Assembly: GCA_963842525.1 (NCBI GenBank)
Contig: CAWJGT010000021.1
Coordinates: 34,716 to 98,715 of the forward strand
Source of the DNA: an uncultured Holophagales bacterium
Lineage (GTDB): Bacteria > Acidobacteriota > Thermoanaerobaculia > Multivoradales > UBA5704
Direction: 5' to 3'
Length of the DNA: 64,000 nucleotides
The position numbers were made by a program, and so were the translations under genes. This document shows, one piece after another, positions 27,467 to 64,000 of the stretch (positions are counted from its first letter, which is position 1; each line of letters starts with the position of its first letter). The notes beneath the pieces were generated by a model that saw nothing but the letters and a program-made list of their open reading frames with translations, ran no database searches and was not told the DNA's origin.

Positions 27467-27490
27467 GCCGGATCCCAGGAGGAGAAAATC

Positions 27491-47471: not shown

Positions 47472-48257
47472 GGACGATCCCTCCTGGAAAACAGCCTTGT
47501 GTCGATAGGGTGGCCCCCATGACCGCCCTCCAGAGGTGTAGTGGGGCGGGACGTGGAATTATCGCGCCGGTGCGGCGCCGGCGCCAGGGGTTTCACCTGC
47601 TCAGCTCTCCCTGCCTCGCAGCCGGAAGGGCGCATTGCCCGGCGAGGTGCAATCCGGGCGGCGTTGAAGGCACGAGACTTTGCCCGCGCCCATGCCCTGG
47701 CCCAGCGCTATCTCGCCGACGAGGGCACTCCCAAGTCCCTGCGGACGGCGTTTCGCGAGATGCTGGAGGAGGATGCGCGAAGGCAGGGACAGTGAAATGG
47801 GCCTAGATCCGCGATTGGGCTCGCGGTGCGATTGGAGGCAGGAAGGCCCTCCCCTCCGCGAACGCTCGCGTGCTCGTATTCTGGCTCAGCGAAATCCGAT
47901 AAAATGGTGACTCTGCCCCTCTTGCGCGATCAGAACGGCGTCCCGATCGGCGTTCCATCCCATGAAGAGGGGATCGAAGCGGATCTTCTCGCATGCCATC
48001 TGGAGATAATGAAGCTCATGGCATGAAGGGATCTGGGGCTCGGCAGCGAGCCGATCGTAGACCTGCCAGTCGGACTCGCTCTGCGCGGCGAAAGCGGAGG
48101 CCCACACTTCCCGGGAGGGCGCCATCAGGACGGCTCGGGGCGGACGAAGCGTTCGAGACGGGCAGCAGCATCCTTGGCGTGCAGTGCGCTCATGAAAGGA
48201 GTCTACTCCGATGGCGGCTTCACCAACTGCGTCAAAAGCCCCTGAGGTGACGGAAGC

Positions 48258-49041
48258 TCAATCCCGGAGGGAGGTGAGGATCTCGACCACCGAAGCAGTG
48301 GTCGTCGCCTGGCGGAGGACGGATTTGAGGGTTTCCGACTCGTTGGAGCTCGCAAGGGCGGTCCGCAGGTCGTCGTCCACTGCGAGGCCGCGGGCAGCCA
48401 GAACCTCGACGATAGCCTCTCGGAGTCCTTGGAGCCTCTCCCTCGGCGCGGACATCCTCCAGGCTGGCATAGCCCTGGCGCTGGAGGAGATTGCGGAAGA
48501 TCACCCGGCGCGCCGCCTCGCGGTCGTAGAGGGCCTCCACCGGCAGCGGATTGGCGAGGATTCCTGGCGCTTCGAGCTGCTCGCCGGGATTCGCGATGCG
48601 CACCCTCTGGCCCGGCTGGTGCACCTCCACCCGCCGCGGACCGGTCAGCCGCACCACCCAGATATGGCGGGTGCCGGCGGCGAAGAGCTCTTGGATCTTG
48701 ACCTGCAGATCCGCTTCGTCCTGGCCTGTGTCGGCGTACTCGACCGCCAGGGGAGGTGCTCCCTCGGCCCATCCCGGCTGGTCGGGGATCTCGCCGACGG
48801 AGAGATCGGGGGCGCGGAGGATTTCCGGGGACGGGGAAAAACCGACGTCGACGCCAACGTCCTGGACCGCGGGATCGCTCGCGAGCACTCCGTCTCCCAC
48901 GCTCGTCGCCTTTCCTCCCCGGCGGCCCGTGGGCAGGCATTCAATGGGATGGCCGTTGGACAGCTCATAGGGGTCGCCGGAGCGAAGCTGGTCAGCACGG
49001 AAAGGGCCCTGAGATCTGGCGTGCAGCGAGTTTTTCGTCAT
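48258..49041 (-). pseudogene. Uma2 (DUF820) family putative endonuclease with a helical C-terminal extension; frame break near 48440
   Basis: APDLSVGEIPD...LAVEYADTGQDEADLQVKIQELFAAGTRHIWVV fits Uma2. After GYASLEDVRAEGE the sequence continues in ORF 48258-48470 (RLQGLREAIVEVLAARGL...). Confidence 0.65.
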
Positions 49042-49102: not shown

Positions 49103-52100
49103 TCACCCGGCGAGAGCGAGCGCCGGGGGCGCGGCAGGGGGCGTGGCTTTTGCCGGATCCCGGCGGCGGCGGGCGATCACCTGGATGATGCCGGGGAGGA
49201 TTTCCACGTGGTCGGCGATCAGCTCGTGGAGCGTCCCGCGCTCGATGGCGAGGAGGCTGGACGGCTCGACCGCCTTTGCCGAGGCGGTACGGACTCCGGT
49301 CTCGACGGCGGCGATCTCGCCCAGGAGCTCTTCCGGCCCGCTCCGGCCGACCACCTGGCCGCGGACCTCGATCTCGATCCCGCCGGCCACGGTGATGTAC
49401 AGGTTGTCGCCGGGGTCGCCAGCCTGGAAGAGCAGCTCGCCCGGACGCAGCCGGACCTCGGTGATGGCTGCGGTGAGGCGGACCAGATCGGAGGGGCGGA
49501 CCTGGCCGAAGATCGGCGAGCGGCGCAGGATCTTCGCCTTCTCGAAGAGCAGCAGGGGCGGCTGGTCGCCCTCCCACCCCAGCCGGCGTTCGAGGGTTCG
49601 CAGATCCTGGGTCGGCAGCGATCCCCGCCGGCGCGCATAGAGCCCGCTGTCGAGCCTGTGGACCGCCCAGGCGGCCATCTCCCGGATCATCGGCTCCGGA
49701 TGGTGGAGGACGGCGAGGAGCTCGTCGGGGACCGCGGAGGCGGGCATGTCGACCAGGGCTCCGATCGCGCAGGCGCGGGTCCAATGGTCCATGTGTGAGC
49801 TGCCCTGGTGGATGATCTCGCACAGGCGCCCCACGCGGCCGAGCTGGCGCTGCGGGAAGCAGCGCTGGAGGCGCTCGAGGAGCTGGGACGGCGGGAGCTG
49901 CTCGAACAGCGGGAAGAGGGCCTCGCGCACGTCCGGCGGGACGACCGCCTCGGCGATCTCGAACACATAGGCGTGCCCCTGGCCGGCCGGGTCGGCCAGG
50001 CTGTGGCGCATCAGCTCCACCGCCTGCGGATCGGCCACCAAGGACAGAAGCAGGAAGATCGAGTCCCAGTCCCGCTCGAGGTCGCGCGCGAGGGCCGCCA
50101 CCACCTCTGCCACGGCGGGCTCGGTGCCGAGGTCGATCTGGGCCGCTGTGATCCAGGCCATGTGGCCCGCGATGTTCTCGACCTGCTGCTTGACCACGTT
50201 GTCCTGCAGGTCGTCGGCGTGGAAGCCGCGCCGTGCGAGGGAGAGCAGCGCCTGCCGCTGGACCTTGCGGTTTGGGTAGGTGATCTTGTCGAGAAGGAGG
50301 AGGTCCGTCTGCGGCCCGGGCACCTGCTCGTAGACCCGAACGATGCGCAGGAGGGTCTGGGGGCTCTGGTCGGAGCGGCGGAACATCTCCTCCAGGGAGT
50401 TGAGCATGGGCGCGCCGATCGTCACCAGGGCTGCGGCGGCCTCGCGGCAGCACTCGCTCGCGCGGAGCTGCTCGACGACGCGCGGCCAGACAGACCGGCC
50501 GAAGGGGCTGGCCGCCGCTCGCAGGGCCTCCCGGCGGACGGCGGTGTTGGTGTCCCACAACAGGCGCGGCAGCAGCTCGGCGGCCTCCTGCTTGGACAGG
50601 CTGGCGAGCAGGGATGCCGCGAGGCGCCGCTCCTCCGCGTCCTCCGACGTGGCCAGGGCGCGGACCCGCTCGTACGTGGTGTTGACCAGGAGGGACTCCA
50701 GGGTCCGCACGGCCTGGCGCAACGCGGCCCGCACGTCGAACCGCAGCTCTGTGGCCTCGCGGCGCTGCAGCTCGGCGAGCCGGTGGAGGAGGCGCAGCCG
50801 GTCGATGCGCTCCGCGGCCTCGCGGCGCAACTCCGGGTTGTCGGACGCCAGCAGCTCGCAGAGGGCCTCCTCGTGCAGGATGGAGTCGGACTTCTCGAGG
50901 ACGTTGAGCGCGTAGGCAACCTCGCCGACCGGCGCGGTATGGAGGTTGCGCCGCATCTGGTCGACGGGCGAGATGACGATCGGACGGCGGGTCCGGCGGG
51001 AGAGGAGCTGCAACAGCCGGACGCGGTATTCGCGGTGCGCCAGGAGAGTGACCGCCAGCCAGGCCACGAGGAGGAACACCAGGATCCAGATCACGCTGGC
51101 CGGACCAAACGCCGGAGGGCCGATGAGGAGCAGGGCGAGCCCCGCCAGGCCGAGGGAGACCTGCTTGACCACCCCTTCGACTCGGGTCTGGAAGACGAAC
51201 CGCTCGCTCTCGTCCACCGGCTGGAACAGGACCTTGAACGAGGGATCGAACAGCGAGCGGCGGACCACGAACTCGATCAGCTTGGCGAGCGAGAGGAAGA
51301 CGAAGAAGCTCAGGGCGGCGGTGCCCTGGACCCCCGCGCTGGCCGCCGCCAGCAGCGCGCAGAGCAGGACTCCCAACGGCAGGGACAGGAGGCCGAAGAG
51401 GAGCCCGAACTGCCGGATCAGGCGGCCGGAAAGAAACGTTTTCATCACCAGCTCGACGATCTTGGTGGCTCCCCAGAAGACGCCGAGGAAGATGGCGAGG
51501 GCCTCTTCGTTGCGGAACGTGCCGCGCGTCGCGCTGAGGAACCCGAAGTCGACGAAATAGAGGGAGAAGACGAGGAAGACGGCGAGGAGCGACAGCAGCA
51601 CGAAGTAGCGGTCGCGGAGCACGTGGGCCGGCGGGGCCTTTTCTTCCTCTACCTGGGCCGGGAGCGCGGGGCCGGCGACGGCCTCGGCCGGGAGCCTCCG
51701 CAACCCGGCGAGCACCACCAGCAGGCAGAGCGCCAGCCCTACGGCGGCGACCAGCAGGAGGTCCGAGGTGTCGCGGGAGAAGAAGGAGGAGACGAGCACG
51801 GGCACCAGGAAGAAGCCGAAGATCTCGGCCACCACCTCGCCGGAGCTGACGAGGCCGAACAGGCGCTTGCCCTGCTGCAGGTCGTAGGTGCGGCCGGCGA
51901 GGCCCCAGAAGCCGAGGTCGAGCAGCGTCAGCAGAGGATCGACGCAGATGAAGACGAGGAAGCTCATCCACAGCGGATCGCCGAGGCCGAAGGCCAGCCG
52001 GAAGGCACAGACCGCTGCCAGGAGGAAGGTCAGGTTGCCGATCAGCAGCCGGCGGAAGGGGAGGCGGCGCTGGAAGAGCGAGAAGAGCCACACCACCAGC

Positions 52101-52318
52101 GCACCCACCACGCCCGACGCGATGTAGGCGTAAGGGAGCCAGCGCGTCGCGTAGTGGCTGAGGAACGTGGCATTGGCAAAGGCGAAGAAGAAGGCGATGA
52201 AGATGCCGTTGCACAGCGACTGCCCCAGCAGGAACAGGGTGGGCAGACCCTCGCCCGGTCGGAGATCGAAAGTCCGGAAGAGGAAATCCTGGAGTCGGGT
52301 GCTGTGGCGGAGGTCCAT
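49103..52318 (-). CDS. Polytopic TLC/MFS-like (ATP:ADP-antiporter-like) membrane domain + HEAT-like solenoid + C-terminal cyclic-nucleotide-binding domain (1071 aa)
   Basis: About 12 TM helices span aa 1-440. HEAT-like repeats follow (DNPELRREAAERI, DTNTAVRREALRAA, HPEPMIREMAAWAV). The CAP_ED-like end is IFGQVRPSDL...LFQAGDPGDNLYITVAGGIEI...LLGEIAAVETGVRTASAKA. Confidence 0.7.
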   Translation of the reverse strand: MDLRHSTRLQDFLFRTFDLRPGEGLPTLFLLGQSLCNGIFIAFFFAFANATFLSHYATRWLPYAYIASGVVGALVVWLFSLFQRRLPFRRLLIGNLTFLLAAVCAFRLAFGLGDPLWMSFLVFICVDPLLTLLDLGFWGLAGRTYDLQQGKRLFGLVSSGEVVAEIFGFFLVPVLVSSFFSRDTSDLLLVAAVGLALCLLVVLAGLRRLPAEAVAGPALPAQVEEEKAPPAHVLRDRYFVLLSLLAVFLVFSLYFVDFGFLSATRGTFRNEEALAIFLGVFWGATKIVELVMKTFLSGRLIRQFGLLFGLLSLPLGVLLCALLAAASAGVQGTAALSFFVFLSLAKLIEFVVRRSLFDPSFKVLFQPVDESERFVFQTRVEGVVKQVSLGLAGLALLLIGPPAFGPASVIWILVFLLVAWLAVTLLAHREYRVRLLQLLSRRTRRPIVISPVDQMRRNLHTAPVGEVAYALNVLEKSDSILHEEALCELLASDNPELRREAAERIDRLRLLHRLAELQRREATELRFDVRAALRQAVRTLESLLVNTTYERVRALATSEDAEERRLAASLLASLSKQEAAELLPRLLWDTNTAVRREALRAAASPFGRSVWPRVVEQLRASECCREAAAALVTIGAPMLNSLEEMFRRSDQSPQTLLRIVRVYEQVPGPQTDLLLLDKITYPNRKVQRQALLSLARRGFHADDLQDNVVKQQVENIAGHMAWITAAQIDLGTEPAVAEVVAALARDLERDWDSIFLLLSLVADPQAVELMRHSLADPAGQGHAYVFEIAEAVVPPDVREALFPLFEQLPPSQLLERLQRCFPQRQLGRVGRLCEIIHQGSSHMDHWTRACAIGALVDMPASAVPDELLAVLHHPEPMIREMAAWAVHRLDSGLYARRRGSLPTQDLRTLERRLGWEGDQPPLLLFEKAKILRRSPIFGQVRPSDLVRLTAAITEVRLRPGELLFQAGDPGDNLYITVAGGIEIEVRGQVVGRSGPEELLGEIAAVETGVRTASAKAVEPSSLLAIERGTLHELIADHVEILPGIIQVIARRRRDPAKATPPAAPPALALAG

Positions 52319-52339
52319 CGCTCGCAGTCTCCCCCTCGT

Positions 52340-55000
52340 TCAGCGGCGGAACGACAGCCGCAGGAAGACGGCGCGCCCGGGCTGCGGCAGCACCCGGGCA
52401 AAGCTGACGCCGTCCGCCGGGGAGACCCCCGGATCGTCGTAGCGGGCGTCCAGCAGGTTGTTCACCACGAGCTGCAAGCGGACGCCGGGCAGGACGTTCT
52501 CGTACGCCACGGCGCCATTGACCACCAGCGACGGATCGACGCGCTCGCCGTAGGGGTCGACCGGCCGGCCGAGGCGATCGACCCACAGCTCCTGCGGCTC
52601 CCGCAGCAGGTCGAGGTTCTGGCCCGCGCGGCGCTCGCTGGCCCAGTTGCCTCGCACGTTGAAGGTCCAGCGGTCGGCGACGCGGCCGGTCAGCCCGAGG
52701 TTGACGCGGTGGTCGGCGATGTCCTCGATCCGTACGTCGACGATCGGGCGGCCCTGCTGATCCTGCAGCGGCGTGCCGTCGCTGTGCAGGGGATCGGTCC
52801 GCGGGTCGGTCCAGGTGTAGCTCGCGTCCAGGTCGAGCCGGCGGTAGCGCCATTTCGCCGCCGCCTGCACGCCGGAGATCTCCAGCGACCCGAGGTTCTG
52901 GTTCTGCAACGTGCTCGGCTGGTTCGGCCGCTCGATCTCCTTGGTGGTGACCACGTCGCTGTAGCGGGCCTGGAAGGCCGCCGCTTCCAGCGACAGCTCG
53001 GGCCGCGGCTGCCAGCCGGCGCTCACCTCCAGGTTGCGCACCCGCTCCGGAGCCAGTGCGGGGTTGGGCAGCTCCCGCAGGCCCGGCGCCGTGGCATAGC
53101 GGTTGAAATTCGACGGCGCCTTGAACGCCTCGGCATAGATCGCCTTGAGCACCCAGGAGGACGGGCTGTAGATGAAGGCCAGCCGCGGGCTCGCCACGGT
53201 GCCGTAGCCCTCTCCCCGGTGCTGGGTGTTGTGGTCGACGCGGGAGCCCAGCACCACCTTGAAGTGGTCCCGGAGCCGGTAGGACGCCTGCGCGAAGGCA
53301 CCCACGTCCAGCTCGTCGAAATATTGGGGGTCGTCGCCGGCCAGGTTGTCGGTCGTCAGCAGGTAATCTCCCTGGACCATGCTGTTGCGGGCATCGAAGC
53401 CGCCGACCACGGCGAGCCGGCTGGAGGGGCTGTAGACGAGCGTCGCCTCACCCTTGAACTGCTCGGAGAGGAGCGCATAGGAGGTCTCCTGCCAGAAGGA
53501 GGCGCGGTCCGTCGCAAGGTCGCGGAGACCGAGGCCGCCGTTTGCATAGCTCTTGAGCAGTTGCTCGCTGGTATCCCCGCCCAGCGTGTGCCGCTTGTAG
53601 CTGCTCGTGAAGCTCAAGGCGAGCCTGCGGCTCAGCTCGTTGTCGTACTTGACATAGAAGAGGCTCTGCTGGGGCACCCACAGCGTGCCGTTGTCGGCAC
53701 CGGCATAGAGGCCGTCGGTGTACCAACTGCTGAACCCCTCCTCACGGCGCCAGGTCTGGAAGCCGAGCGTCAGGTTGAAGAGGTGCAGCCGGCCGCCGAT
53801 CGACCAGTCGTCGGTCCTGTCCGAATACCGCGGCAGCCGTCCTTCGACCGGGATGGCGAGCGCCGCTTTGTCGAGGGCGCGGGCCCTCTCGGCGCCCGCC
53901 GGCGTGAGCTCGAAGCCGCCGCCCGCCGCCGGCCTCACATAGGGGGAGGCGCGCAGGAGCGCCTCGTCCGCCGCGGACAACGAGCCGCTCTCCGGCCCGG
54001 TGCGGAGGATGCGGGAATAGTCCAGCCCGTCGTAGAACGACGGGTCGTAGTCCCAATCGGGGAATTCCGAGAGGTCCCACTCGTCGGACTGGTAGAGGCG
54101 GGCGCTCAGCGCGAGCGAGACCTTCTTGTCGCGGCGGCGCGTCGCCAGCGTGACGTCGGCCCAGCGGGTGTCCCAGGCGCCGCCGCCGGCCGTCAGCGCG
54201 GTGGCGAAGCGGCGGCCCTCCGGGATCATCTCCTCGGTTTCGCGCGTGATCACGTTGATCACTCCGGCGAAGGCATTGGCGCCGTACAGGGTCGAGGCCG
54301 GGCCGTAGATCACCTCGATGCGGTCGACGTTGCTCAGCGGAAACTGCCGCGACAGATGCGCGGCGTTCGACCACAGGTCGTTCTCCTCGATGCCGTCCAC
54401 CAGGAACAGCGTGCGGTCGTTGCGCGAGCGGTAGCCGCGCTGGTAGAAGACCGAATAGATGTCGCCGTTGCCGCGGGAGAAATCGAAGCCCGGCAGGTCG
54501 TGGAGCACCTGCTCCAGGTCGAGGTAGCCGCGGCGTTCGATCTCCTCGGCGGTGATCACCACCACGGTGGCGGGCGCCTCGCGCAGCGACTCGGGGGTCT
54601 TCGACACCGAGGTCACCACGGCCGACGTCGGCTGCCTGTCGCGGATCTGCTGCACTCGCCGGACGAACGGCAACGGATCGTCGAAGGCCGGACGGAAAGA
54701 GGGGTTGAGCTCCAGCAGGCTGGCGATCGTCCGATCGGCCCGCTCGATCTCGTCGAGCGCCAGCCAGGCCTTGGCAAGCAGGGTGTAGGCGCCTTCCTGC
54801 TCGCTGGGCTCGAGGTCGTGCGCGCAGGGCTCGAGCCGGGAGACCACGAGCTCCAGGCGGCCGATCTCGAAATCGGCCTGCGCGGCCTGGAGGTCGCAAG
54901 CGGTCTCCGCCCGGACAGCCTGCGGAGCGAGCCCCGGCAGGAGGAGGGCGAGGCCGAGGAGGACCGGGCTCGTGAGGCGGAACGGGGTCGGGGTCCGCAT
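52340..55000 (-). CDS. TonB-dependent outer-membrane receptor with a helical N-terminal extension of about 90 aa
   Basis: It has a signal peptide (MRTPTPFRLTSPVLLGLALLLPGLAPQAVRA). The plug is VVVITAEEIERRGYLDLEQVLHDLPGF...IEVIYGPASTLYGANAFAGVINVIT. A long beta-barrel follows, ending in RLSFRR. Confidence 0.85.
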   Translation of the reverse strand: MRTPTPFRLTSPVLLGLALLLPGLAPQAVRAETACDLQAAQADFEIGRLELVVSRLEPCAHDLEPSEQEGAYTLLAKAWLALDEIERADRTIASLLELNPSFRPAFDDPLPFVRRVQQIRDRQPTSAVVTSVSKTPESLREAPATVVVITAEEIERRGYLDLEQVLHDLPGFDFSRGNGDIYSVFYQRGYRSRNDRTLFLVDGIEENDLWSNAAHLSRQFPLSNVDRIEVIYGPASTLYGANAFAGVINVITRETEEMIPEGRRFATALTAGGGAWDTRWADVTLATRRRDKKVSLALSARLYQSDEWDLSEFPDWDYDPSFYDGLDYSRILRTGPESGSLSAADEALLRASPYVRPAAGGGFELTPAGAERARALDKAALAIPVEGRLPRYSDRTDDWSIGGRLHLFNLTLGFQTWRREEGFSSWYTDGLYAGADNGTLWVPQQSLFYVKYDNELSRRLALSFTSSYKRHTLGGDTSEQLLKSYANGGLGLRDLATDRASFWQETSYALLSEQFKGEATLVYSPSSRLAVVGGFDARNSMVQGDYLLTTDNLAGDDPQYFDELDVGAFAQASYRLRDHFKVVLGSRVDHNTQHRGEGYGTVASPRLAFIYSPSSWVLKAIYAEAFKAPSNFNRYATAPGLRELPNPALAPERVRNLEVSAGWQPRPELSLEAAAFQARYSDVVTTKEIERPNQPSTLQNQNLGSLEISGVQAAAKWRYRRLDLDASYTWTDPRTDPLHSDGTPLQDQQGRPIVDVRIEDIADHRVNLGLTGRVADRWTFNVRGNWASERRAGQNLDLLREPQELWVDRLGRPVDPYGERVDPSLVVNGAVAYENVLPGVRLQLVVNNLLDARYDDPGVSPADGVSFARVLPQPGRAVFLRLSFRR

Positions 55001-55005
55001 GGTCG

Positions 55006-58000
55006 TTACTTCCCTTCGGGCAGGTCGGGACAGGTTCTCTCGTAGGCGAGGCCGGCGGACATGAAACGGCCCCACTCGGCCTGGCTCAGGTTGCGGCCGA
55101 CGCTCCGGCAGATGGCCTCGGCATAGGCCGCGGGGCGCGTCCAGCGGAGGCGCACCCGGCGGTCGGCGCCGCCGGAGATCAACCGCTGGCCTTCCGGCGT
55201 GAGCGCCACGGACCACACCCAGCCGCCGTTGTCCGCCAGGCGCAGCGGCTCGACGCCACGGCGGTTGACGTTCCACAGGCGGACGGTCCCGTCGAGTGCC
55301 CCCGAGGCGAGCAGGGCGGGCGGCGAGAAGGCCACGGAGCCGACCGCGGAGGCGTGGCCCGCGAGCACTGCCGGGGGAGCCGAGGGATCGGCGAGGCTCC
55401 AGAGCAGGATGGTCCCCTCCACCGTGCCCGCGGCCAGGAGCTGCCCGTTGGAGCTGAAGGCCGCCGAGCGCAAGTCGCGTCCGCTGGCGAGCACCTGCGG
55501 GGACGCGGGGAAGCTCCACAGCCGCAATCCGCTCGCGGTCGCGGCCGCCAGGCGCGAGCCGTCCGGGCTGAAGGCGAGTGAGGCGACCCGGGGGCCTGAA
55601 GGGAGCAGCACTTCGGTCACGTCGGGATTGGCGGGATGGCGCAGGAGCACTCCCCCGTCGCCGCTGCCGGAGGCCAGACGGCCGTCGGCCGCCCGGAAGG
55701 CCAGGGCACCAACGATGCCGGTATGGCCGGGCAGCGGGCGGGGCGCGCTTCCGGGCTGGGAGAGGTCGCGCAGCAGGAGCGTGCCGTCGAGCCCGCCCGC
55801 GGCGAGATACCGTCCCTGGGAGTCGAGCGCCAGCGAGCGGACGCCGCCCGGCAGCCTGGCCGCGACCTCCGGATTACCGGTTGCCTGGCGCAGATCGAGG
55901 AGGCTCACCGTGCCGTCGTCGGCGCCGGCCGCCAGGGTGCGGCCGTCGCGGGAGAGGGCCAGTGCGCGGACCGCGTCAGACTGCGGGAAAACGGGCTCCG
56001 TGCCGGGGGCGACGCGGAGGGCTCCCTGACGGAGAGCGCCGAACACATTGGCGTCTTCGGGATCGCCGTCTTCGCGCTGGTGGATCCGCCAGGCCTGGAG
56101 GGCGAGCAGCGCGGCGAGCTGCCGCTCGTCGGCGTCCTGGAGGCGCGCGAGCTGAGCGATCAGGGAGCGGCTGAGCTGGAGCTGCCCGAGGCGCCGGGCC
56201 TCCTCGGCGGATTCCTGGGCCTGCCGGCGGAGGTCGTCGGCCCTCTCCTTCTGCTGGCTGATCTCCACCGCGGCTGCCTCCGCCTCTGCCCGCGCCTCGC
56301 GGGCCCTATCCGCCGCGGTCTCGGCCGCCGCGCGAGCGTCGTCGGCCCGGCGCTTTTCCTCCAGCGCCACGACCGCGCTCTGGCTCGCCCGGAGGCGCTC
56401 GCTGTCCGCCACCCGCCTCTCCGCCTCGGCCGCCCGCCGCGCCCTGTTGGCCGCGATCTTTTCGCGGTCTGCGGCGCGGCGTTGCTGCTGTGCGAGGATC
56501 GTCTGGCTCTGCGCCTCGTTCGCCTTTTGCAACGCCAGCTGCGCCTGCTCCTCCGCCTTGTTGGCCGAGGCCTTGGCCTGCGACTGCCAGACCACGGCGA
56601 AGATGCCGAAGAGGAGGATGAGGAGGGCGGCCGAGCCGAGGATCACGGCCAGCCAGCGGACTTTTCGCAGCTCGCCCAGGCGCTGCAGCTCGCGCGACGC
56701 GAGGGCCAGGTCGCGCTCCCGCTCGCTATATTCCAGGAAGAGCAGGCTGCGCTCGAACGCGAGGTCGTAGCGCTGCGCCCAGAGCGCCGTCGGCTTCTGC
56801 CGGTCCCGCCAGTTGAGGGCCACCTGCAGCTCGGGGTCGCGCCACAGCCCGGCGGTCCCCTCCTGGTATTGCGTTGCGGCCTTCGACAGGCGCAGGTAGA
56901 GCTGCGCCGAGCGCGCCTCCTCGTCCACCCACTGGTGGAGCCGGGTCCAGGTCCGCATCAGGCTCTCGTGGGAGATGTCGAGGACGGTATCGGCGGTGAG
57001 CAGGACGCGCGCCGGCGGCATCAGGAAGGAGCGCCCCGGCCGGCGGAAGCGCTCGACCACGGCCACCACCTCCGTCTCGGTCGCGCCCGCCAGCTCGCAG
57101 ATCTCGCCCAGCCGTGTCGGGCGGCGCACCCCGCGGGCGTCCGAGCCCTTGTCGGTCAGCGCCTTGAAAAGGGTCTCGGCGATCTCGCGCTCGCGGTCCG
57201 AGGAGAGCTCCAGGTAGGCCTTCTCGGCGTGCAGCGAGAGCGCCTCCTTCATCGTGCCGGTGGCTTCGTAGTGGCGCAGGTCCAGGGGCTCGTCCTCGCC
57301 GTGATGGCCCGACCAGTAGTCCCAGGTCCGCATCAGGGCGTGCTGGAGGATGGGGAGCTGGTCGGGGTCGTCCCCCATGTCGTTCAGGAGGCGCAGCACC
57401 AGGCGAGGCGCGACCTCGGCGCCGCCCACGGCCACCGGACCGACGATGGCGGCGCGGCGTTCCTCGCGGGTCATCCGGGGCACCAGGTACTGCCCGTCGT
57501 TGACCGCCTCGGCCAGCCCGGGGAGCTCCGTGCAGTTGCCGATGAAGTCGCTGCGCATGGTGAGGACGACGTAGATTGGAACCTCTCCCTGGCGGACCGT
57601 CTCGAGGAGAAGGCTCGCGAACGCCGTGGCCTCGTCGCGGGAGTTGCTGATCCGCGGGTTGCGCTTGAAGCGGAAGAGCTCCTCGAACTGGTCGACCAGC
57701 ACCAGCAGGTTCTCGCCGGCCGGCAGGCGCGCCTGGCGCACGCACTCGATCAGCCCCCGGGTGCTGCGGTGCAGGGTGGCGTCGAGGATGGAGCGGTCGA
57801 CCTGGGCCATCTCCGGGTCGCCGCCGCGGCCGAGCACCGCAGGTGCGTTGAGCGCCGTCGCCAGATTGCCGATGGGATCGTCCCCCGGGCGGAAGATGGC
57901 GACCCGCCAGCTCGAGCCGGCCTGGACCATGAAGCCGCCGTGGAGCGACGGGATCAGCCCGGAGCGGACGAGCGACGACTTGCCGCTCCCCGACGTGCCC

Positions 58001-58146
58001 ACCACCGCCAGGAACCGGGTGCGGCGCAGGCGTCCGAGCAGCTCGTCGACCTGCCGCTCGCGGCCGAAGAACAGGTGCTCCTCCTCGGGCTCGAAGCTGC
58101 GCAGGCCGGGGAAGGGATTGAAGCCGACCGCCGTGTCGAGGATCAC
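55006..58146 (-). CDS. STAND-type P-loop NTPase (nSTAND1-like) - TM helix - long coiled coil - WD40 propeller (1046 aa)
   Basis: The GTG start overlaps the TIR gene stop (GTGA). Motifs are FPGLRSFEPEEEHLFFGRERQ, Walker A GTSGSGKSS and Walker B LLVLVDQFEE. The TM helix is WLAVILGSAALLILLFGIFAVVW. About 190 aa of Ala/Arg/Glu coiled coil and about 7 WD40 blades follow, with a C-terminal ICRSVGRNLSQAEW motif. Confidence 0.85.
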   Translation of the reverse strand: MILDTAVGFNPFPGLRSFEPEEEHLFFGRERQVDELLGRLRRTRFLAVVGTSGSGKSSLVRSGLIPSLHGGFMVQAGSSWRVAIFRPGDDPIGNLATALNAPAVLGRGGDPEMAQVDRSILDATLHRSTRGLIECVRQARLPAGENLLVLVDQFEELFRFKRNPRISNSRDEATAFASLLLETVRQGEVPIYVVLTMRSDFIGNCTELPGLAEAVNDGQYLVPRMTREERRAAIVGPVAVGGAEVAPRLVLRLLNDMGDDPDQLPILQHALMRTWDYWSGHHGEDEPLDLRHYEATGTMKEALSLHAEKAYLELSSDREREIAETLFKALTDKGSDARGVRRPTRLGEICELAGATETEVVAVVERFRRPGRSFLMPPARVLLTADTVLDISHESLMRTWTRLHQWVDEEARSAQLYLRLSKAATQYQEGTAGLWRDPELQVALNWRDRQKPTALWAQRYDLAFERSLLFLEYSERERDLALASRELQRLGELRKVRWLAVILGSAALLILLFGIFAVVWQSQAKASANKAEEQAQLALQKANEAQSQTILAQQQRRAADREKIAANRARRAAEAERRVADSERLRASQSAVVALEEKRRADDARAAAETAADRAREARAEAEAAAVEISQQKERADDLRRQAQESAEEARRLGQLQLSRSLIAQLARLQDADERQLAALLALQAWRIHQREDGDPEDANVFGALRQGALRVAPGTEPVFPQSDAVRALALSRDGRTLAAGADDGTVSLLDLRQATGNPEVAARLPGGVRSLALDSQGRYLAAGGLDGTLLLRDLSQPGSAPRPLPGHTGIVGALAFRAADGRLASGSGDGGVLLRHPANPDVTEVLLPSGPRVASLAFSPDGSRLAAATASGLRLWSFPASPQVLASGRDLRSAAFSSNGQLLAAGTVEGTILLWSLADPSAPPAVLAGHASAVGSVAFSPPALLASGALDGTVRLWNVNRRGVEPLRLADNGGWVWSVALTPEGQRLISGGADRRVRLRWTRPAAYAEAICRSVGRNLSQAEWGRFMSAGLAYERTCPDLPEGK

Positions 58147-59630
58147 GCGAGCACCCCCACCTTGCCTTGGAGCTGTTGGAAGAACGGCGCCAGGTCCGCC
58201 GGTGAGTAGCCATCGATCTGCTGGAACACCAGGGCTTCGTGCGTGCGGAACCGCCGCTTCTGCGGGTTGTCGGGCCCGGCCACGAAGACCCCCCGCGCCC
58301 CAATCGGCCGGGTACGGCCGTAGGCGGCGCTCTTCTGCACCTCCCGCAGCTTCTGGCGCAGCCACAGCTCGCTGCCGGCGCCGTAATAGAGGAGGACGGC
58401 GTCGCAGAGGGCCAGGCTCTCCTCATGGTCCCGCCGCACCATGGCCTCATCGCCTTCGAACACCGGCAGGATGACCTCATGGCCCAGGCCGAAGAGGTGG
58501 TCCTCCAGGGCTGCCGTCTGGTCGAGGTCGCGTTGGTCGCAGATGAGATAGATGCGTGTAGGCCCGCCATCCGCCGGCCGCTCGGGCGCCGCAGCGGCAG
58601 GCGCGAGCCGCCGGTGGAGGGCCACCTTGAAATCCTCGAGCGGCGTCTCCAGGAGGTCCGCACCGTTCTGCAGCCGGGAATCCGTCTGCAGATGCTGGAG
58701 GAAGCGCTGCTGCCGCTCGTCGCGGGTCTCCAGGCCGGGAGGGATCCAGATCAGCCGGGAGAAGCCGCCGGCGGATCCGCGCTCGATGGCCAGCTCGTGC
58801 TGGAGCGCCACGATCGACTCCGTCGCCCCCTCGGGCACCACGCCGTAGTTCTGGCCCACCATGTGGACCGAAAGGCTGCAGCGGCCGAGCTGCTCGCGTA
58901 CGAACGCCTCGCACTCGGGCCCATAGAGGGGCAGGGGCCGGTCGGGCAGCACCGTCCAGCCGTGCTCCTGCAGCTCGCGCTTGACCGTATCCCGTTGGTC
59001 CTTGAGATCGAAGCTCGCCTCGGCCAGATAGACCGCCCCGCGGCTGGGGCTGGCGGGGGCCTCCCCGGCGGCGTCCTGCTTTTCGAGGATCGACAACAGG
59101 TCGGAAATATCGTGGGCGAGGTCGTCGAGCCGCGTCCAGTAGTGGCGCTGGATCTCGGGGTCGGCGATCTGCGAGAGCTCCCGCTGCCGGCCGGTCTCGG
59201 GCTCCACGACGAAGAAGTCATAGCCCAGCAGATCCTGGAGCTCCGAGGGGTGCTGCTCCAAGGGAACCGGCGTCTTGACCACCTTGAACACCCGTGCCTT
59301 GTTGGCGACACGCACGCCGCCGGTGCTCTCCGAGGCGCGATAGAACTCCTCGACCTCGCGCAGGCACCAATCCGATTTGACGTAGCGGGGCGACAGGACC
59401 GAGACCAGCAAGGCGGTGTGGGGAAGCTTCTCGCACAGCTCGTCGGCGAAGTAGTCGTTGCCCTGGAGCTTGGGGTCGCGGAAGATCCTGGGCGGCTTGC
59501 CCAGGAGCTGGGCCAGGCGGACCTCCAGAGCGTGGTGGAAGGTCGAGATCCAGCCCTTCTGTCCCTCGGTCAACGCCTGATCGTCGATGTGGGCGTAGCT
59601 GAGGAAGACGTCGCTGTCGAATCCGTTCAT
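58143..59630 (-). CDS. TIR domain protein followed by two DUF4062-like (TIR-like) domains
   Basis: The TIR domain begins DVFLSYAHIDD...SVLSPRYVKSDWCLREVEEF. Two further Rossmann-like modules follow (AVYLAEASFDLKDQRDTVKRELQ...SLSVHMVGQNYG; RIYLICDQRDLDQTAALEDHL...CDAVLLYYGAGS). An alternative GTG start lies at 59636. Confidence 0.8.
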   Translation of the reverse strand: MNGFDSDVFLSYAHIDDQALTEGQKGWISTFHHALEVRLAQLLGKPPRIFRDPKLQGNDYFADELCEKLPHTALLVSVLSPRYVKSDWCLREVEEFYRASESTGGVRVANKARVFKVVKTPVPLEQHPSELQDLLGYDFFVVEPETGRQRELSQIADPEIQRHYWTRLDDLAHDISDLLSILEKQDAAGEAPASPSRGAVYLAEASFDLKDQRDTVKRELQEHGWTVLPDRPLPLYGPECEAFVREQLGRCSLSVHMVGQNYGVVPEGATESIVALQHELAIERGSAGGFSRLIWIPPGLETRDERQQRFLQHLQTDSRLQNGADLLETPLEDFKVALHRRLAPAAAAPERPADGGPTRIYLICDQRDLDQTAALEDHLFGLGHEVILPVFEGDEAMVRRDHEESLALCDAVLLYYGAGSELWLRQKLREVQKSAAYGRTRPIGARGVFVAGPDNPQKRRFRTHEALVFQQIDGYSPADLAPFFQQLQGKVGVLA

Positions 59631-59814
59631 CCTCACCTGACCGGCCTCACATAGGGACCGCCGTCGCCTGTCCGGCCGACGTTCATGTCACAAACCTCCG
59701 AAGCTCAAGGTTTGCAGTATCATAGATCATGCCTGCCCCCGTGAGTGGGGCGAGAATCAAGAAAAACCTGAAAGTGAAGGACTTGCGCCGCGTGGAGAGG
59801 CGACGCCGGCGGCC

Positions 59815-59863
59815 TGTGTCAGACCGTGTCAGATGTGTCAGGACATGTCGGCGTCATGTCGGC
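59815..59863. promoter_or_regulatory. Helically phased array of five TGTC(A/G)G repeats upstream of the TIR operon
   Basis: TGTC starts fall at 59817, 59827, 59836, 59847 and 59858, giving spacings of 10, 9, 11 and 11 nt. GACATGTC is palindromic, and a further CATGTCAC lies at about 59676. Confidence 0.45.
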
Positions 59864-59877
59864 ACGCCGTAGACCCG

Positions 59878-61957
59878 CTATTCGTCGTCCTGCGGCGGAA
59901 GATCGCTCTCCGGCTCGGACCGTTTCCGCCAGCGCCGCCAGTGCAGGACGAGCGCCCAGGGAACCAGGATCCACCAGCAGACGAGGACGGCCCACAGGCC
60001 GAAGGAGGGCCGGTTGGCCAGGGTCAGGAAGGTGTTGTTGCCGAAGACATTGTCGTTGACCAGATAGGTCCAGGTGGAGGAGGGACCCCGCAGCCCTTCA
60101 CGCTCCCAGTCGACGCCGTCCGCACTCCTGGAGCTCGCAGCGCTGGTGCTCGAGAAGCTGCCAGTAGGTGAGCAGCCGGGCACGGAGATCGCCGTGCTGG
60201 CCTTCGACGATGCGCTGCACGCGCGCCACCTCGCGCCGCACGGCCGGATGATCGACGGCCCGGTCCGCCTCTCCGGATTCACCGGCCGCGCGCAGTCCCT
60301 GCAGGAGCTTCGGCGGCAGCAGCCGCTCGATGCCGCAGCGTTGCAGCAGGCTGTCCTCCAGGCTGAGGATGAACCGGGACGAGCCGGGGTCGCCCTGGCG
60401 GCCGGCCCGGCCTCGCAACTGGTCGTCGATGCGCCGGCTCTCGTGGCGGTTGGTGCCGAAGATGTACAACCCGTCGAGGGCCATGACCGCCTCGCGCTGC
60501 AGCTCGCCCGCTCCCCCGAGCCGGATGTCGGTGCCGCGGCCCGCCATGTTGGTCGAGATCGTCACCGCGCCCAGGGCGCCTGCCTCGGCCACGATCTCGG
60601 CCTCCTCGGCATCGTTCCTGGCATTGAGCACGCGGCAGGCGATCCCGGCCTGGCGCAGGTCGGCGGCGAGGCCCTCCGACTCTTCGACGCTGACCGTGCC
60701 CACCAGGATCGGCCGGCCGGTGGCATGGGTGCGGGCGATCTCCTCCAGGAGGGCCCGCCGCTTCGCCTCCGTGGAGGCATAGATCACGTCGGGGTGATCG
60801 ACGCGGATGCACGGCCGGTGCGGTGGGATCGGCGCGACTGTCGAGGTTGTAGACGCTGGGCCAGCTCCGGTGGCGGCGGGCCGCGCCGTGGCGGTCATGC
60901 CGCAGAGCCGCGGATACTTCCGCAGGAAGTGCTGGACGGTGATCGAGCCGAGGATCTTGCCTTCCGGCTGCGCAGCGCAATCCTTCCTTGGCCTCCAACG
61001 CCGCCTGCAGACCGTCGGGCCAGTGGCGGTTCTCGGCGACGCGGCCGGTGAGCTCGTCGACCAGCTCGATCCGGCCGTCGCGGACGATGTAATCCACGTC
61101 GCGCCGCAGCAGGGCCTCGGCGTGCAGGGCGTTGCGCACCTCGGCGAGCAACCGCACGTTCTCGCCGACAAAAAGGTTTCCAGCAGCCGAGGAGCTTTTC
61201 GGCGCGGTGCACGCCGTGCTCGGTCAGGAAGATGTTGTGCGCGTACTCGTCCGTGTCGTAGTCGCTTTCCCGCTTCGAGCCGGCGGGCGATGCCGGCCAG
61301 GCGCTCGAGGTCGACGCCCGTCTCGTCGAGCGTGCCGGCAATGACCAGGGGGATGCGTGCCTCGTCGATGAGGATCGAGTCGGCCTCGTCCACCAGGCCG
61401 AGATGGAAAGGCCGGTGCACCTGCTGGCCGCGATCGAAGCAAAGGCCGTCGCGCAGGAGGTCGAATCCAGCTTCCTTGACCGTCAAGTAGGTGACATCGC
61501 AGCCGTAGGCCCGCTGCCGCTCGGCGGTCGAGAGCCCCTCCTGGACGCAGGCGACGGTGAGCCCAAGCCGTTCGTAGATAGGCCCCATCCAGGCGGCGTC
61601 GCGGCGGGCCAGGTAGTCGTTGTAGGTGAGGACGTGCACGCCGCGGCCGGTGAGCGCGTTGAGCACCACGGGAGCGACCGCCGCCAGCGTCTTGCCCTCG
61701 CCGGTCTGCATCTCCACCAGCTTGCCCTGATGCAAGGCGATGCCGGCGAGCATCTGGACGTCATAGGGCCGTTGGCCGAGCGCCCGCCGGGCGGTCTCGC
61801 GCACCAGCGCGAAGCAGTCCGGCAGGAGAGTGTCCAGCGGTGAGCCGTCGCGGGCCTGCCGGCGCAGGTCCCCAGCCCGGTTGCCCAGCTCCTGATCGCT
61901 GGCGCGGGCAAGATCCGCCTCCCTGGCGTTGATGGCGTCCAGCTCGGAGCTCGTCAA
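59878..61957 (-). pseudogene. SecA-family ATPase paralog with a C-terminal TM helix, disrupted by at least 6 frame changes
   Basis: The DEAD motor is intact at the N-terminus (MQTGEGKTLAAV, HVLTYNDYLARRD, LVDEADSILIDEARIPLVIAG). The PPXD and NBD2 pieces are scattered over three frames (SDYDTDEYAHNIFLTEHG; NLFVGENVRLLAEVRNALHAE...ALEAKEGL; KILGSITVQHFLRKYPRLCGMTATA; VYNLD; IPPHRP). The tail in ORF 59878-60282 ends with GLWAVLVCWWILVPWALVLHW. Confidence 0.75.
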
Positions 61958-62026: not shown

Positions 62027-62581
62027 ATGATCCGTTTCAGCCGCATGGGGCTCGCCGGCGCGGCGTTGCTCGTCCTGGCGCTGCCGGCCGTTGCGCAGCG
62101 CGAGATCCAGAAGCCGCGGGACAACTGGCAGCAGCCGGGCGAGATCCAGGTGCCGAAAGGCATCCAGGCGATCCGCGCTCAGGAGGAGCGGTGCAGCAAG
62201 CGCTTCCTGATGGTCTCGGATGCGCTCTTCGAATTCGACAAGGCCACGCTCTCGCCGGATGCCGAGGAGACCTTGCGGGCCCTGGTCCCCCTCCTCGCCA
62301 AGGCCGGCAAGCATCCGGCGACGATCGAAGGCCATACGGATGCCAAAGGCGCCGACGCCTACAATCAGACGCTGAGCGAGGCGCGGGCCCGGACGGTCAA
62401 GGACTGGCTCGTAGCCCAGGGGGCGCTCCCCGCGACGACGCCCACCCAGGGCTGGGGCGAGCAGCGCCCGGTCGCACCCAATGCCAAGCCGGACGGCTCG
62501 GACGATGCAGCCGGGCGCCAGAAGAACCGGCGGGTCGAGGTGGTGCTCGACCTCTGCGGCCAGGCGGGCCGGGCCCGGTAG
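62027..62581 (+). CDS. OmpA-family (OmpA_C-like) periplasmic/outer-membrane protein
   Basis: An AAGGAGGAGA SD and a signal peptide precede FEFDKATLSPDAEETL, IEGHTDAKGADAYNQTLSEARARTVKDWL and NRRVEVVL. Confidence 0.85.
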   Translation: MIRFSRMGLAGAALLVLALPAVAQREIQKPRDNWQQPGEIQVPKGIQAIRAQEERCSKRFLMVSDALFEFDKATLSPDAEETLRALVPLLAKAGKHPATIEGHTDAKGADAYNQTLSEARARTVKDWLVAQGALPATTPTQGWGEQRPVAPNAKPDGSDDAAGRQKNRRVEVVLDLCGQAGRAR

Positions 62582-62599: not shown

Positions 62600-64000
62600 T
62601 CAGGTTCCCGGAGCCGCGGTGACCTGGAACCGCCGCGCCGCGACGGCCTTGGCCTTGCCGGCGTCACCTCCCAGGCGCAGCTCCAGCAGGTAGCTCCCGG
62701 GCGGCAGGGAGCCGGTCCGCAGGCGCGCAGTCAGGAGATCGGGCTGACCGGCCTCGCCAGGGGTGATGGCGAGCAGCTCGACATCGCCGCCGGTCGCGGG
62801 TTTGCCCGCGGCGGTGAGGATGCGTCCCTTGACCCACGCGCCCTTGCCTGTGAAGCCGTGGCCGACGAGCAGGAGCTGTGCCTCGCCGGCCGCGGGAAGG
62901 TCGGCTTGCGCGGCCGGCAGCACCGCGCGGCCGTGGACGTCGAAGGCCCCCTCGGCCGAGCGCACGAGCAGCCAGGGATCGTTGGCCGGCGACAGGAAGA
63001 GGGCTTCGAGCCGGGGGTCGGGCTCGGCGGAGGTCTCGTCGAGGTGCAGGGGGACCGAGAGGAGAGACAGGCGCCCGTTGCCGCGGTCGCGGACCAGCAC
63101 GCGCAGGAGGTGCTGTCCCGGCGGAAGGTCGAGGTTACCGAGAACGCGCACGCCGCTCCGGGCAAGGCGGGTCCCGACCTTGGCCGGGTCGAGCTCCACG
63201 GCCTGCGCGAAAAAGTCGCTGCTGCTCCCCCTCTCGTCCAGGGCATAGCCGAAGACCTCGAGCCCGATCCGCGTCCCGGAGGAGAGGAGGCGCTGTCCCG
63301 GAATCTCGACCAGCACTGCCACGGAGGTGGACTGCGCGCCGGTCCGCAGCGGCACGGCGACGACCTCGACCCCCAGATCGTCCTGCTCCTCGTCCCCTGC
63401 CACCAGCCGGGCCGCTTCGGCGATCCGCTGGACATCCTTCTGCTTGCCGAACGGAAGAGGGGCGAAGAACCCGCCGCGGTGGTGGAGGCCGACGCCTCGG
63501 CCGGCGTTGCGGAGCCGCACCTTCAGGGTGTGATAGGCGCCGTCGGGCTTCACGTCGTCGGCCTGGACGGTGAGCACGTAGCTATGGGCGCTGCGCCGCA
63601 GCGCGCCGTCCAATCCCTGGGCGAGACGGTTCGTCCCCTCGACCAGCGTGCCGCCCGTCTCATTGGCGAGGAAGAAGAGCCCCTCGGAACGATCGTCGCT
63701 CCGCCGTACCCCCGCGAGGTCCACGGAATGGATAACCCAGCCCGAACGCCGCAGGTCCCCGAGCGTGGTTTCGAGCCTGTCGAGCAGATAGCTGCCGCCC
63801 ATGGTCGGGTCATCGATGTTCTGGGGAAAGTCGGTGGCGATGGACATGGGGAACCCGTCGCTGAAGAGGGTCAGGTACTTCCTGCCCACCACGGACCGCA
63901 GAACGTCGGCGAGGCCGGCCATACCCTCGGCCATGGTCGCGACGTGACTGCGCTGGCGGGCCTCGATGTGCGGCTTGTGGAGCACGGACGAGTGGGAAAG
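62600..64000 (-). CDS. VWA-domain protein of the acidobacterial VWFA-related type (5' end outside the window)
   Basis: The frame is open to base 64000. The end of a VWA fold is present (GRKYLTLFSDGF, HSVDLAGV, LFFLANETGGTL), followed by the beta-rich C-terminal domains typical of this family. Confidence 0.7.
   Translation of the reverse strand, partial: LSHSSVLHKPHIEARQRSHVATMAEGMAGLADVLRSVVGRKYLTLFSDGFPMSIATDFPQNIDDPTMGGSYLLDRLETTLGDLRRSGWVIHSVDLAGVRRSDDRSEGLFFLANETGGTLVEGTNRLAQGLDGALRRSAHSYVLTVQADDVKPDGAYHTLKVRLRNAGRGVGLHHRGGFFAPLPFGKQKDVQRIAEAARLVAGDEEQDDLGVEVVAVPLRTGAQSTSVAVLVEIPGQRLLSSGTRIGLEVFGYALDERGSSSDFFAQAVELDPAKVGTRLARSGVRVLGNLDLPPGQHLLRVLVRDRGNGRLSLLSVPLHLDETSAEPDPRLEALFLSPANDPWLLVRSAEGAFDVHGRAVLPAAQADLPAAGEAQLLLVGHGFTGKGAWVKGRILTAAGKPATGGDVELLAITPGEAGQPDLLTARLRTGSLPPGSYLLELRLGGDAGKAKAVAARRFQVTAAPGT

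Follow-up and report, generated by a model that had tools for sequence, protein, structure and literature searches.

A STAND/TIR system with a cell-surface-signalling layout in an uncultured Acidobacteriota bacterium

Closest described systems

STAND NTPases encoded beside TIR proteins in bacterial conflict systems (Kaur, Burroughs, Iyer and Aravind 2020, PMC7159879), and the NLR-like/Avs receptors (PMC13581612), are understood as switches that sense in the cytoplasm. The operon described here departs from this picture, with a sensor that is predicted to lie outside the cytoplasm and that appears to be tied to an outer-membrane protein by a new domain. It consists of four genes, A, B, C and D, at 49103-59636 on the minus strand of a 64,000-nucleotide stretch of DNA from an uncultured Holophagales bacterium (contig CAWJGT010000021.1 of assembly GCA_963842525.1, positions 34,716 to 98,715; hereafter the window). 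Gene A encodes a TIR-like protein, B a STAND-WD40 protein with a transmembrane helix, C a TonB-dependent receptor with an N-terminal extension (NTE), and D a membrane protein in which an NTT/TLC-type domain is followed by HEAT repeats and a cNMP-binding (cyclic-nucleotide-binding) domain. The module, which occurs in at least five bacterial lineages, is a STAND/TIR system with a cell-surface-signalling layout, and we give an even chance to the reading in which A-B-C-D represents, for Acidobacteriota, a conserved module for signalling across the envelope.

The likeness to the STAND/TIR conflict systems and to the NLR-like receptors lies in the nSTAND1 domain with intact Walker motifs and C-terminal WD40 repeats, in the TIR gene, which is adjacent to the NTPase gene and translationally coupled to it, and in the occasional presence of TPR-S as an accessory. 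Compared with the systems of Kaur et al. (2020), the effector gene is likewise adjacent but a cytoplasmic sensor is not expected; since a transmembrane helix separates the NTPase from the WD40 repeats, the sensor is predicted to be periplasmic, beyond this helix and a stalk of periplasm length. Unlike the described systems, the module has a near-constant outer-membrane barrel partner with a new extension and is often linked to an NTT-HEAT protein and to partner-switching regulators. Furthermore, no EAD-like adaptor common to A and B was found by BLASTP, and A, B and C match no PADLOC model.

Cell-surface signalling through FecA, FecR and FecI is similar in two respects, namely a receptor extension ahead of the TonB box and a neighbouring single-pass inner-membrane protein with periplasmic and cytoplasmic signalling domains. 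However, the extension in the module is a TPR-like NTE instead of an STN domain and is also carried by small non-transporting barrels, while the partner is a STAND ATPase-WD40 protein and not a FecR anti-sigma factor, and there is no extracytoplasmic function (ECF) sigma factor. No STN domain was detected on C, nor were FecR or ECF sigma genes found in the window flanks or in related loci, and C does not classify as a FecA-type transducer. The Tol-Pal system, with the TolA stalk, the TolB propeller and Pal, likewise has an inner-membrane anchor, a helical stalk rich in Ala, Glu, Lys and Arg, and a propeller that meets an outer-membrane protein; some homologues of B are automatically annotated as 'FtsN' because of this stalk. 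In the module, B is instead a single polypeptide joined to a cytoplasmic STAND ATPase, with no proton-driven TolQR motor, and there is no detectable homology to TolA, TolB or Pal.

The order of a TIR-like or DUF4062 domain, a STAND ATPase and WD40 repeats is also that of the eukaryotic DUF4062-NACHT-WD40 proteins (TEP1, NWD1/2) and of Apaf-1, and TIR-like NADase activity has been shown for TEP1 and for the bacterial Swarozyc (PMC13174449). The module differs from these in being split into two proteins and anchored to the membrane, in its propeller, predicted to be extracytoplasmic, and in the Gln at the expected catalytic position of the DUF4062-like second domain of A. With regard to logic only, Toll-like receptors are also built from a repeat sensor outside the cytoplasm, a single transmembrane helix and a TIR output inside it; here, the sensor is non-homologous, a STAND switch is interposed and the TIR is a separate protein. 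Lastly, D has exactly the NTT-HEAT-cNBD fusion architecture that has been described in a family which is still uncharacterised (Major, Embley and Williams 2017, PMC5381601). According to the portion of that paper available to us, the substrates carried by NTT family members include ATP, NAD+ and other nucleotides, NTT-HEAT fusions are found also in cyanobacteria, Chlamydia and oomycetes, and no linkage to STAND, TIR or outer-membrane genes is reported. Within this family, the B-linked clade of D mostly has no intact cNMP cassette.

The initial annotation of this DNA, made from the sequence alone, had noted that no described system is known to couple such genes. A full-text literature search came to the same result, with no paper tying STAND/TIR proteins to TonB receptors or other outer-membrane partners; neither PMC7159879 nor PMC13581612 mentions TonB or outer-membrane partners of STAND proteins. 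Within the literature searched, the module and its NTE domain appear to be undescribed.

The operon, its products and their linkage

The four genes follow one another with spacings of -4, +5 and +21 nt, in a window with a GC content of ~68% whose closest protein matches are from Thermoanaerobaculia (Acidobacteriota). Gene A (58143-59636) encodes 497 aa from a GTG start; the product on record, of 495 aa, corresponds instead to an ATG start at 59630. Gene A is followed by B (55006-58146, 1046 aa), C (52340-55000, 886 aa) and D (49103-52318, 1071 aa). The TGA stop of A and the GTG start of B share a GTGA overlap (58143-58146), and the same 4-nt overlap is found at two of the related loci, L001 and L091 (related loci are cited below by such numbers). 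The TAA stop of B precedes the ATG of C by 5 nt (55001-55005), whereas 21 nt (52319-52339) lie between the TGA of C and the ATG of D, with a Shine-Dalgarno-like GGGGGAG ending 10 nt before this ATG. In seven other loci with gene calls, the junctions of the same genes range from -20 to +25 nt. The packing of four minus-strand genes, with the GTGA overlap and the 5-nt and 21-nt gaps, had been pointed out in the initial annotation and is confirmed by direct reading of the sequence; of the domains proposed there for a profile search, TIR, nSTAND1, WD40, Plug/TonB barrel, TLC, HEAT and cNMP_binding are backed by Pfam. That annotation had also named transcription termination between the STAND gene and the receptor gene as a finding that would speak against a joint unit. 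No coding-strand terminator was seen there, nor any minus-strand terminator-like site elsewhere within 49103-59636, in a simple scan that gives weak evidence.

Third-position GC is 0.85-0.93 in the four frames. The only promoter-like site, TGGACA-16-TATACT (49075-49048), lies 3' of D and ahead of a Uma2 gene. Upstream of A, 241 nt without an open reading frame (ORF) separate its start from the stop of the ORF at 59878-60282, and this minus-strand intergenic region (59637-59877), in which no sigma-70-like consensus was found, would likely hold the promoter of the operon. The window has no further copy of A-D, an exact look-up of D in public contigs returned no record, and a PHROGs search gave unannotated families only.

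As judged computationally, protein B is a bitopic inner-membrane protein, with an nSTAND1 ATPase N-terminal to one transmembrane helix and a helical stalk and WD40 propeller on the other side. The Pfam matches are strong for both nSTAND1 (3e-102, 343.5 bits against a cutoff of 27.1) and WD40 (7e-38), the latter part also matching TEP1 propeller models, and the AlphaFold2 (AF2) model has a pLDDT (predicted local distance difference test) of 77.7. The Walker A motif GTSGSGKSS (residues 50-58, 57973-57999) has G50, S52, G53, G55, K56, S57 and S58 invariant in 33 homologues, as are D152, Q153, E155 and E156 in the Walker B region. The transmembrane helix (residues 499-521, 56584-56652) has a Kyte-Doolittle value of 2.87 for VILGSAALLILLFGIFAVV and is part of a continuous helix, 464-538, in the model; in 85 homologues from several phyla it starts at position 485-510 and is followed by a tail of 488-580 residues. 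The stalk (residues 522-712, 56011-56583) is rich in Ala, Arg, Glu and Gln and is modelled as helices 545-587, 592-666, 672-691 and 699-712, and the 140 residues past the transmembrane helix in the same 85 homologues have a median of 77% A/E/K/R/Q/L/D, with Pro and Gly together <1% (maximum 3.6%). The propeller (residues 719-1002, 55141-55992) is modelled with pLDDT mostly >90. The ATPase depends on cytoplasmic ATP, and of the two flanks of the helix the N-terminal one carries more positive charge; it is therefore predicted that the ATPase faces the cytoplasm and that the stalk and propeller are periplasmic. Two cysteines that follow the propeller, C1013 and C1039, are both invariant in the alignment of 33 homologues, and 54 of the 85 homologues have two Cys within the last 45 residues. 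The 120 best-scoring homologues of B are ~1000-1100 aa long and ~50-76% identical to it.

Protein C has a signal-peptide-like N-terminus and matches the Pfam families Plug (1e-22, 81.1 bits, residues 139-247) and TonB_dep_Rec_b-barrel (1.4e-38, 134.3 bits, residues 403-849), with no NCBIfam equivalog at cutoff. Ahead of the plug are the NTE, at residues 31-125 (~95 residues, 54626-54910), and the sequence AVVTSVSK (residues 127-134, 54599-54622), which is a putative TonB box by its likeness to known boxes such as DTLVVTA of BtuB; VTSVSKK is conserved in the aligned receptors. The NTE is TPR-like, predicted to be periplasmic, conserved across phyla and has two conserved Cys, and no Pfam model covers it, the best match being TPR_19 at 0.04. 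In Bacteroidales and Cytophagales, the gene after B does not encode a TonB receptor but a ~345-residue OMP_b-brl_2 barrel. A hidden Markov model built from the receptor NTEs only matched the N-termini of 11 out of 11 of these small barrels, with E-values from 3e-17 to 7e-23. In a set of 92 loci, every locus that shows the region downstream of B has the NTE, and no locus without B has it. With regard to its carriers, the complete NTE genes in the metagenome sample are small-barrel-sized in 41 cases and receptor-sized in 13, and a single-sequence search of 1.84 billion representatives with the NTE found 126 proteins, nearly all matched within their first ~150 residues, whose lengths cluster at ~870-920 and ~340-360 residues (shorter ones may be fragments). 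In most loci a small barrel stands in for the receptor, and its N-terminus is homologous to the receptor NTE. As judged from these sequences, what is conserved as the partner of B is therefore the NTE and not TonB-dependent transport; the receptor is a minority carrier, and transport through it is therefore not the conserved feature.

The linkage of the genes was surveyed from both ends. In Acidobacteriota, the order A-B-C-D, at times with an additional gene between C and D, is kept with changed flanks at D identities of 79% (L001), 46% (L002-4), 41% (L005) and 36% (L007), and rearranged versions are found in Bacteroidota, Ignavibacteria and others. A survey anchored on D, with one genome per species and the best 80 of 468 relatives, found B adjoining D in 34 of the 80 loci, and in 22 of the 36 that have at least 7 kb on both sides; these counts leave out L034, which has a weak opposite-strand WD40 match. 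The carriers of B-linked D include Acidobacteriota, several Bacteroidota orders, Ignavibacteria/Kapaibacteria, Chitinispirillaceae and a Thiohalospira. In a neighbour-joining tree, B-linked D proteins form essentially one clade, subdivided by taxon and gene layout, and in the other clade (Chloroflexota, Desulfobacterales, Gemmatimonadota, Latescibacterota and others) none of A, B and C is ever found close by. The survey anchored on B covered 69 WD40-type B loci on metagenome contigs. In it, A lies directly upstream of B in 56 of the 60 evaluable loci and an NTE-bearing gene directly downstream in 56 of 59, while D is in the locus in 19 of 26 and absent from the other 7. Further B-anchored loci are L090, which reads A-B-C followed by a non-ribosomal peptide synthetase (NRPS), L091, with A-B-C alone, and L092, which reads TPR-S-A-B-C-D. 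The neighbourhood check proposed in the initial annotation thus finds the genes recurring together across phyla with differing flanks; the conserved packing of its four-gene unit holds, but the TonB receptor as a conserved element does not.

Protein A consists of three TIR-like alpha/beta domains (approximately residues 8-190, 201-345 and 361-490) and is cytoplasmic. It matches Pfam TIR_2 (2.4e-9, 38.1 bits, cutoff 28), while DUF4062 (0.004, 17.8 bits against 24.7) and NCBIfam FxsC_Nterm (3.7e-16) stay below their cutoffs. The AF2 model (pLDDT 79.8) shows three consecutive alpha/beta domains, and its best Foldseek matches, at probability 1.0, are the TIR domains of SARM1, RPP1, RUN1, SPARTA TIR-APAZ and AbTir. 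In the first domain, Glu94 (codon 59355-59357, motif SDWCLREV) occupies the position of the catalytic Glu of TIR NADases. In a phmmer alignment, residues 45-98 of A pair with the RUN1 TIR and Glu94 falls on an Ala of PDB 7s2z (WCLDAL for WCLDEL), presumably the site of the RUN1 catalytic-Glu mutation E100A. This Glu is invariant in 40 Acidobacteriota-type homologues and in L001, L002, L005, L015 and L090-L092, but is not conserved in the Bacteroidota form of A. The DUF4062-like second domain has a family-wide motif, S274..Q279..A283, with Q279 invariant, and from the motif and the helix register in the predicted model this Gln would be expected at the catalytic-Glu position; a sequence search of the PDB with this domain gave no usable match and no solved DUF4062 structure. 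The third domain has no conserved acidic residue. A thus has the fold and catalytic Glu of TIR NADases; with its sub-cutoff DUF4062 score and Gln for Glu, it does not classify as a DUF4062/Swarozyc-type NADase. Among the ~118 near-full-length homologues listed, identity to A is 56-87%, with one 661-aa relative at 48%. Thoeris (a ThsB TIR with a ThsA-type effector) was considered and rejected, as A has no PADLOC match.

Protein D is a frequent but dispensable partner. It has ~12 hydrophobic helices by hydropathy, a membrane domain at residues 28-427 for which the Pfam TLC match (2.7e-5, 23.6 bits) is just over the cutoff of 21, a HEAT region (HEAT_2, 4e-11, 43.5 bits) and a C-terminal cNMP-binding domain at residues 955-1037 (49208-49456; 3.7e-16, 59.3 bits), and it classifies as an NTT-HEAT-cNBD fusion. 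The phosphate-binding cassette (LGEIAAVETGVRTASA, pattern GE.A..R[ST]A) is canonical in the window, in L001, L002 and L005, and among the D proteins of the clade without B; all remaining B-linked D proteins have a degenerate cassette. The PADLOC matches of D involve the cNMP-binding domain only, against the same domain of the Pycsar models; as there is no cyclase in the operon either, Pycsar was rejected. Co-variation of the TIR Glu with the cNMP cassette was rejected as well, since the Glu is retained at L015, L090, L091 and L092, where D is either degenerate or missing.

Proposed mechanism and competing readings

In the trans-envelope signalling reading, the stalk of B would carry the propeller across the periplasm, where the WD40 repeats would bind the NTE of an outer-membrane barrel. 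In the window the TonB-dependent receptor would play this part, its NTE preceding the putative TonB box in the manner of FecA-type transducers. The WD40-NTE contact would be altered by a passing ligand or by some change in outer-membrane state, and the signal would run through the stalk and transmembrane helix to the STAND switch, leading to nucleotide exchange and oligomerisation, which would gather the TIR domains of A. Because domain 1 of A keeps the catalytic Glu, NAD+ cleavage would be the likely output in the lineage of the window, while in Bacteroidota and Ignavibacteria the output may be tied instead to STAS/RsbW/PP2C partner-switching proteins. D, with its HEAT region as a cytoplasmic scaffold, would probably couple the response to nucleotide exchange, and in the window it may also be gated by cAMP or cGMP. 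We infer the WD40-NTE contact, the activation by oligomerisation, the NADase output and any role of D.

The initial annotation had envisaged an envelope-spanning sensor, and this part gains comparative support from the helix, stalk and propeller of B and the NTE barrel gene downstream. Its further proposal, in which the cNMP-binding D would read or move a nucleotide derived from the TIR, is unsupported because D is dispensable, the B-linked cassettes are mostly degenerate and the Glu is kept only in the Acidobacteriota form of A. No cNMP-binding domain is known to bind TIR products. For the window, both a catalytic TIR and a D gated by cNMP are plausible, but as additions of this lineage and not as the core logic. 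The module provides a model, open to testing, of how signals could pass from the outer membrane to the cytoplasm with no sigma/anti-sigma pair involved. It also places the uncharacterised NTT-HEAT family in a genomic context for the first time and forms a natural series in which a TIR output is swapped for partner-switching regulators.

Several observations weigh against this reading. It is gene order and the shared extension that suggest the WD40-NTE contact, while the topology of B stands on hydropathy, the positive-inside rule and the need of the NTPase for ATP; the role of D in the module is likewise something that we infer. The WD40-type B loci L143 and L147 have no NTE gene in view, and at L145 the NTE gene lies 6 kb off. 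Moreover, the combination of TIR, STAND and WD40 marks NLR-like immune systems, the operon at L007 and L092 includes a fused TPR-S, which is a conflict-system domain, a second TIR protein follows D at L002, and the WD40 part diverges faster than the NTPase (61% vs 89% identity at L001, 43% vs 69% at L002). The last group of points fits an outside-in immunity with Toll-like logic, in which the NTE barrel would be a guarded or decoy receptor for phages or bacteriocins and docking or injection would be felt by the periplasmic WD40 repeats; B would then oligomerise, the TIR of A would deplete NAD+ in an abortive infection, and D would add nucleotide loss or exchange. We regard this as possible but doubtful. 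TonB receptors and small barrels are common phage receptors, A and B combine TIR_2/DUF4062, nSTAND1 and WD40 with the catalytic Glu retained in A, and Uma2, CHAT-TPR and IS110 genes are present in the same window. Additionally, DUF4062 proteins have been shown experimentally to be antiphage NADases (PMC13174449), and the distribution of the module is patchy, with one copy on a Runella plasmid. Against this, the TIR Glu is lost in the A of Bacteroidota, and domain 2 has an invariant Gln at the catalytic position, an equivalence suggested by motif and helix register. The D tree tracks taxonomy and layout, pointing to long vertical inheritance, the conservation of A and B is high, and partner-switching regulators are embedded in many loci. 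The flanks carry TPR-S, Uma2 or PIN genes in some loci and housekeeping genes in most, a scan of IMG/VR viral contigs with a B profile found no relatives, and the missing PADLOC matches for A, B and C point the same way. A physiological role in envelope-to-cytoplasm regulation is modestly ahead of classical, fast-evolving phage defence, and this is the least secure point of the analysis. A more specific form of the immune idea, namely a surface-watching bacterial NLR-like receptor whose NTE barrel reports the docking of a phage or bacteriocin, or ligand passage, so that B fires a TIR NADase and a nucleotide transporter, seems unlikely; if true, it would be a prokaryotic 'Toll-like' outside-in immune pathway and would give NTT-HEAT proteins their first function.

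The receptor and the inner-membrane transporter share one operon, a TonB-box-like motif is retained, an NRPS follows the receptor at L090 as in siderophore loci, and the substrates of NTT members cited above (PMC5381601, in the portion available) include ATP and NAD+. These would suit a dedicated uptake system, in which C and D import a nucleotide- or NAD-like nutrient and A and B only regulate or process it. This is improbable, however, given that most loci carry the NTE on a ~345-aa barrel incapable of TonB-dependent transport (the 41 vs 13 above), that D is missing from 7 of the 26 evaluable B loci and from L090 and L091, and that no periplasmic binding protein or TonB/ExbBD gene is found among the Pfam-scanned ORFs of the window. 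That four unrelated genes without joint function came to lie together by chance is hardly credible: D-family proteins are indeed widespread without A, B and C (in Chloroflexota, Desulfobacterales, Gemmatimonadota and others) and tight spacing is common in compact genomes, but A-B-NTE-barrel recurs in ~95% of the B-anchored loci, in several phyla and with differing flanks, and the overlapping stop and start codons are conserved. The surveys effectively refute chance adjacency.

Layouts in other lineages and genes of the window

The accessory regulators found in other lineages are STAS, RsbW-like HATPase_c_2 and SpoIIE-type PP2C proteins, none of which is encoded at the operon of the window. In Bacteroidota and Ignavibacteria one layout is STAS - B - C - x - D - large SpoIIE-type PP2C sensor - RsbW-like kinase, where x is a ~280-aa GNAT-like protein. 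The commonest layout in metagenomes is D - A - B - NTE small barrel - beta-propeller lipoprotein, sometimes with a HAMP-SpoIIE phosphatase between D and A. The lipoprotein, of ~400 aa and with propeller-like repeats (weak DUF5122), regularly follows the NTE small barrel at L031, L070, L082 and many of L105-L170, where a Vut_1 transporter gene is also often found upstream of D on the opposite strand. Cultured carriers make the module experimentally reachable, namely Runella rosea HYN0085 and Persicobacter species. In the former, the 88-kb plasmid NZ_CP030852.1 (L173, 55783-77905) encodes, in this order, two STAS proteins, an RsbW-like protein, B (WP_114070623.1, annotated 'hypothetical protein'), a TonB-dependent receptor (WP_162794286.1), a GNAT protein, D (WP_114070620.1, 'MFS transporter') and a sensor kinase; the same-strand genes here also include glgX and one for an AGE-family epimerase. 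Homologues of B are also found on replicons of Persicobacter sp. JZB09 and P. psychrovividus.

A sister form of B, of 858-1421 aa, has A upstream, nSTAND1 and a transmembrane helix, with TPR repeats, predicted to be periplasmic, in place of WD40 (L148, L150, L152, L154-L156, L160, L161, L165, L167 and L171). No NTE gene lies 3' of this form; the gene after it encodes a Phenol_MetA_deg-like outer-membrane barrel at L165 and a 451-aa protein without a Pfam match at L156. A change of periplasmic domain type therefore goes along with a change of outer-membrane partner type, with another barrel seen in one case.

Individual loci show further peculiarities. At L090 (15832-23156), on a 9.3-Mb contig, the NRPS that stands directly after A-B-C in place of D is multi-modular and exceeds 3800 aa. 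The second TIR_2 protein at L002 (13436-16354, in a Thermoanaerobaculia metagenome-assembled genome, MAG) has 972 aa and begins 250 nt 3' of D. The Acidobacteriota MAG of L007/L011 (2324-6471) has B broken into two ORFs and no readable TIR motif in A, through either decay of the locus or long-read frameshift errors; the TPR-S protein precedes the module at L007, as in L092.

Within the window, the gene upstream of the operon (60098-61957, minus strand) encodes a 619-aa protein whose domains are limited to SecA_DEAD and the SecA P-loop, of the 'secondary SecA_DEAD' type (compare PMC4452313). It was rejected as a member of the system, being absent upstream of A in L002, L005 and L090-L092. On the operon side of this gene lies the small ORF at 59878-60282 (minus strand), with a hydrophobic tail, and on its far side are an OmpA-family gene on the opposite strand (62027-62581) and a 461-aa ORF without a Pfam match (62600-63985, minus strand). 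This arrangement is not kept beside the module at other loci. The Uma2-family (restriction-endonuclease-like) gene lies 61 nt after D, at 48232-49041 (minus strand). Further away, the window encodes a TPR-CHAT (caspase-like protease) protein of conflict-system-type architecture (9753-11615, minus strand), a Ser/Thr kinase fused to long TPR_12/TPR_10 arrays (22268-25063, plus strand) and a short HATPase_c-TPR protein (37966-38703, minus strand). The IS110-family transposase (Transposase_20; 29449-30585, plus strand) is flanked by thrombospondin type-3 repeat proteins at 27163-28959 and 31493-32416, and an AAA_14/DUF4143 ATPase is encoded at 19930-21300 on the plus strand.

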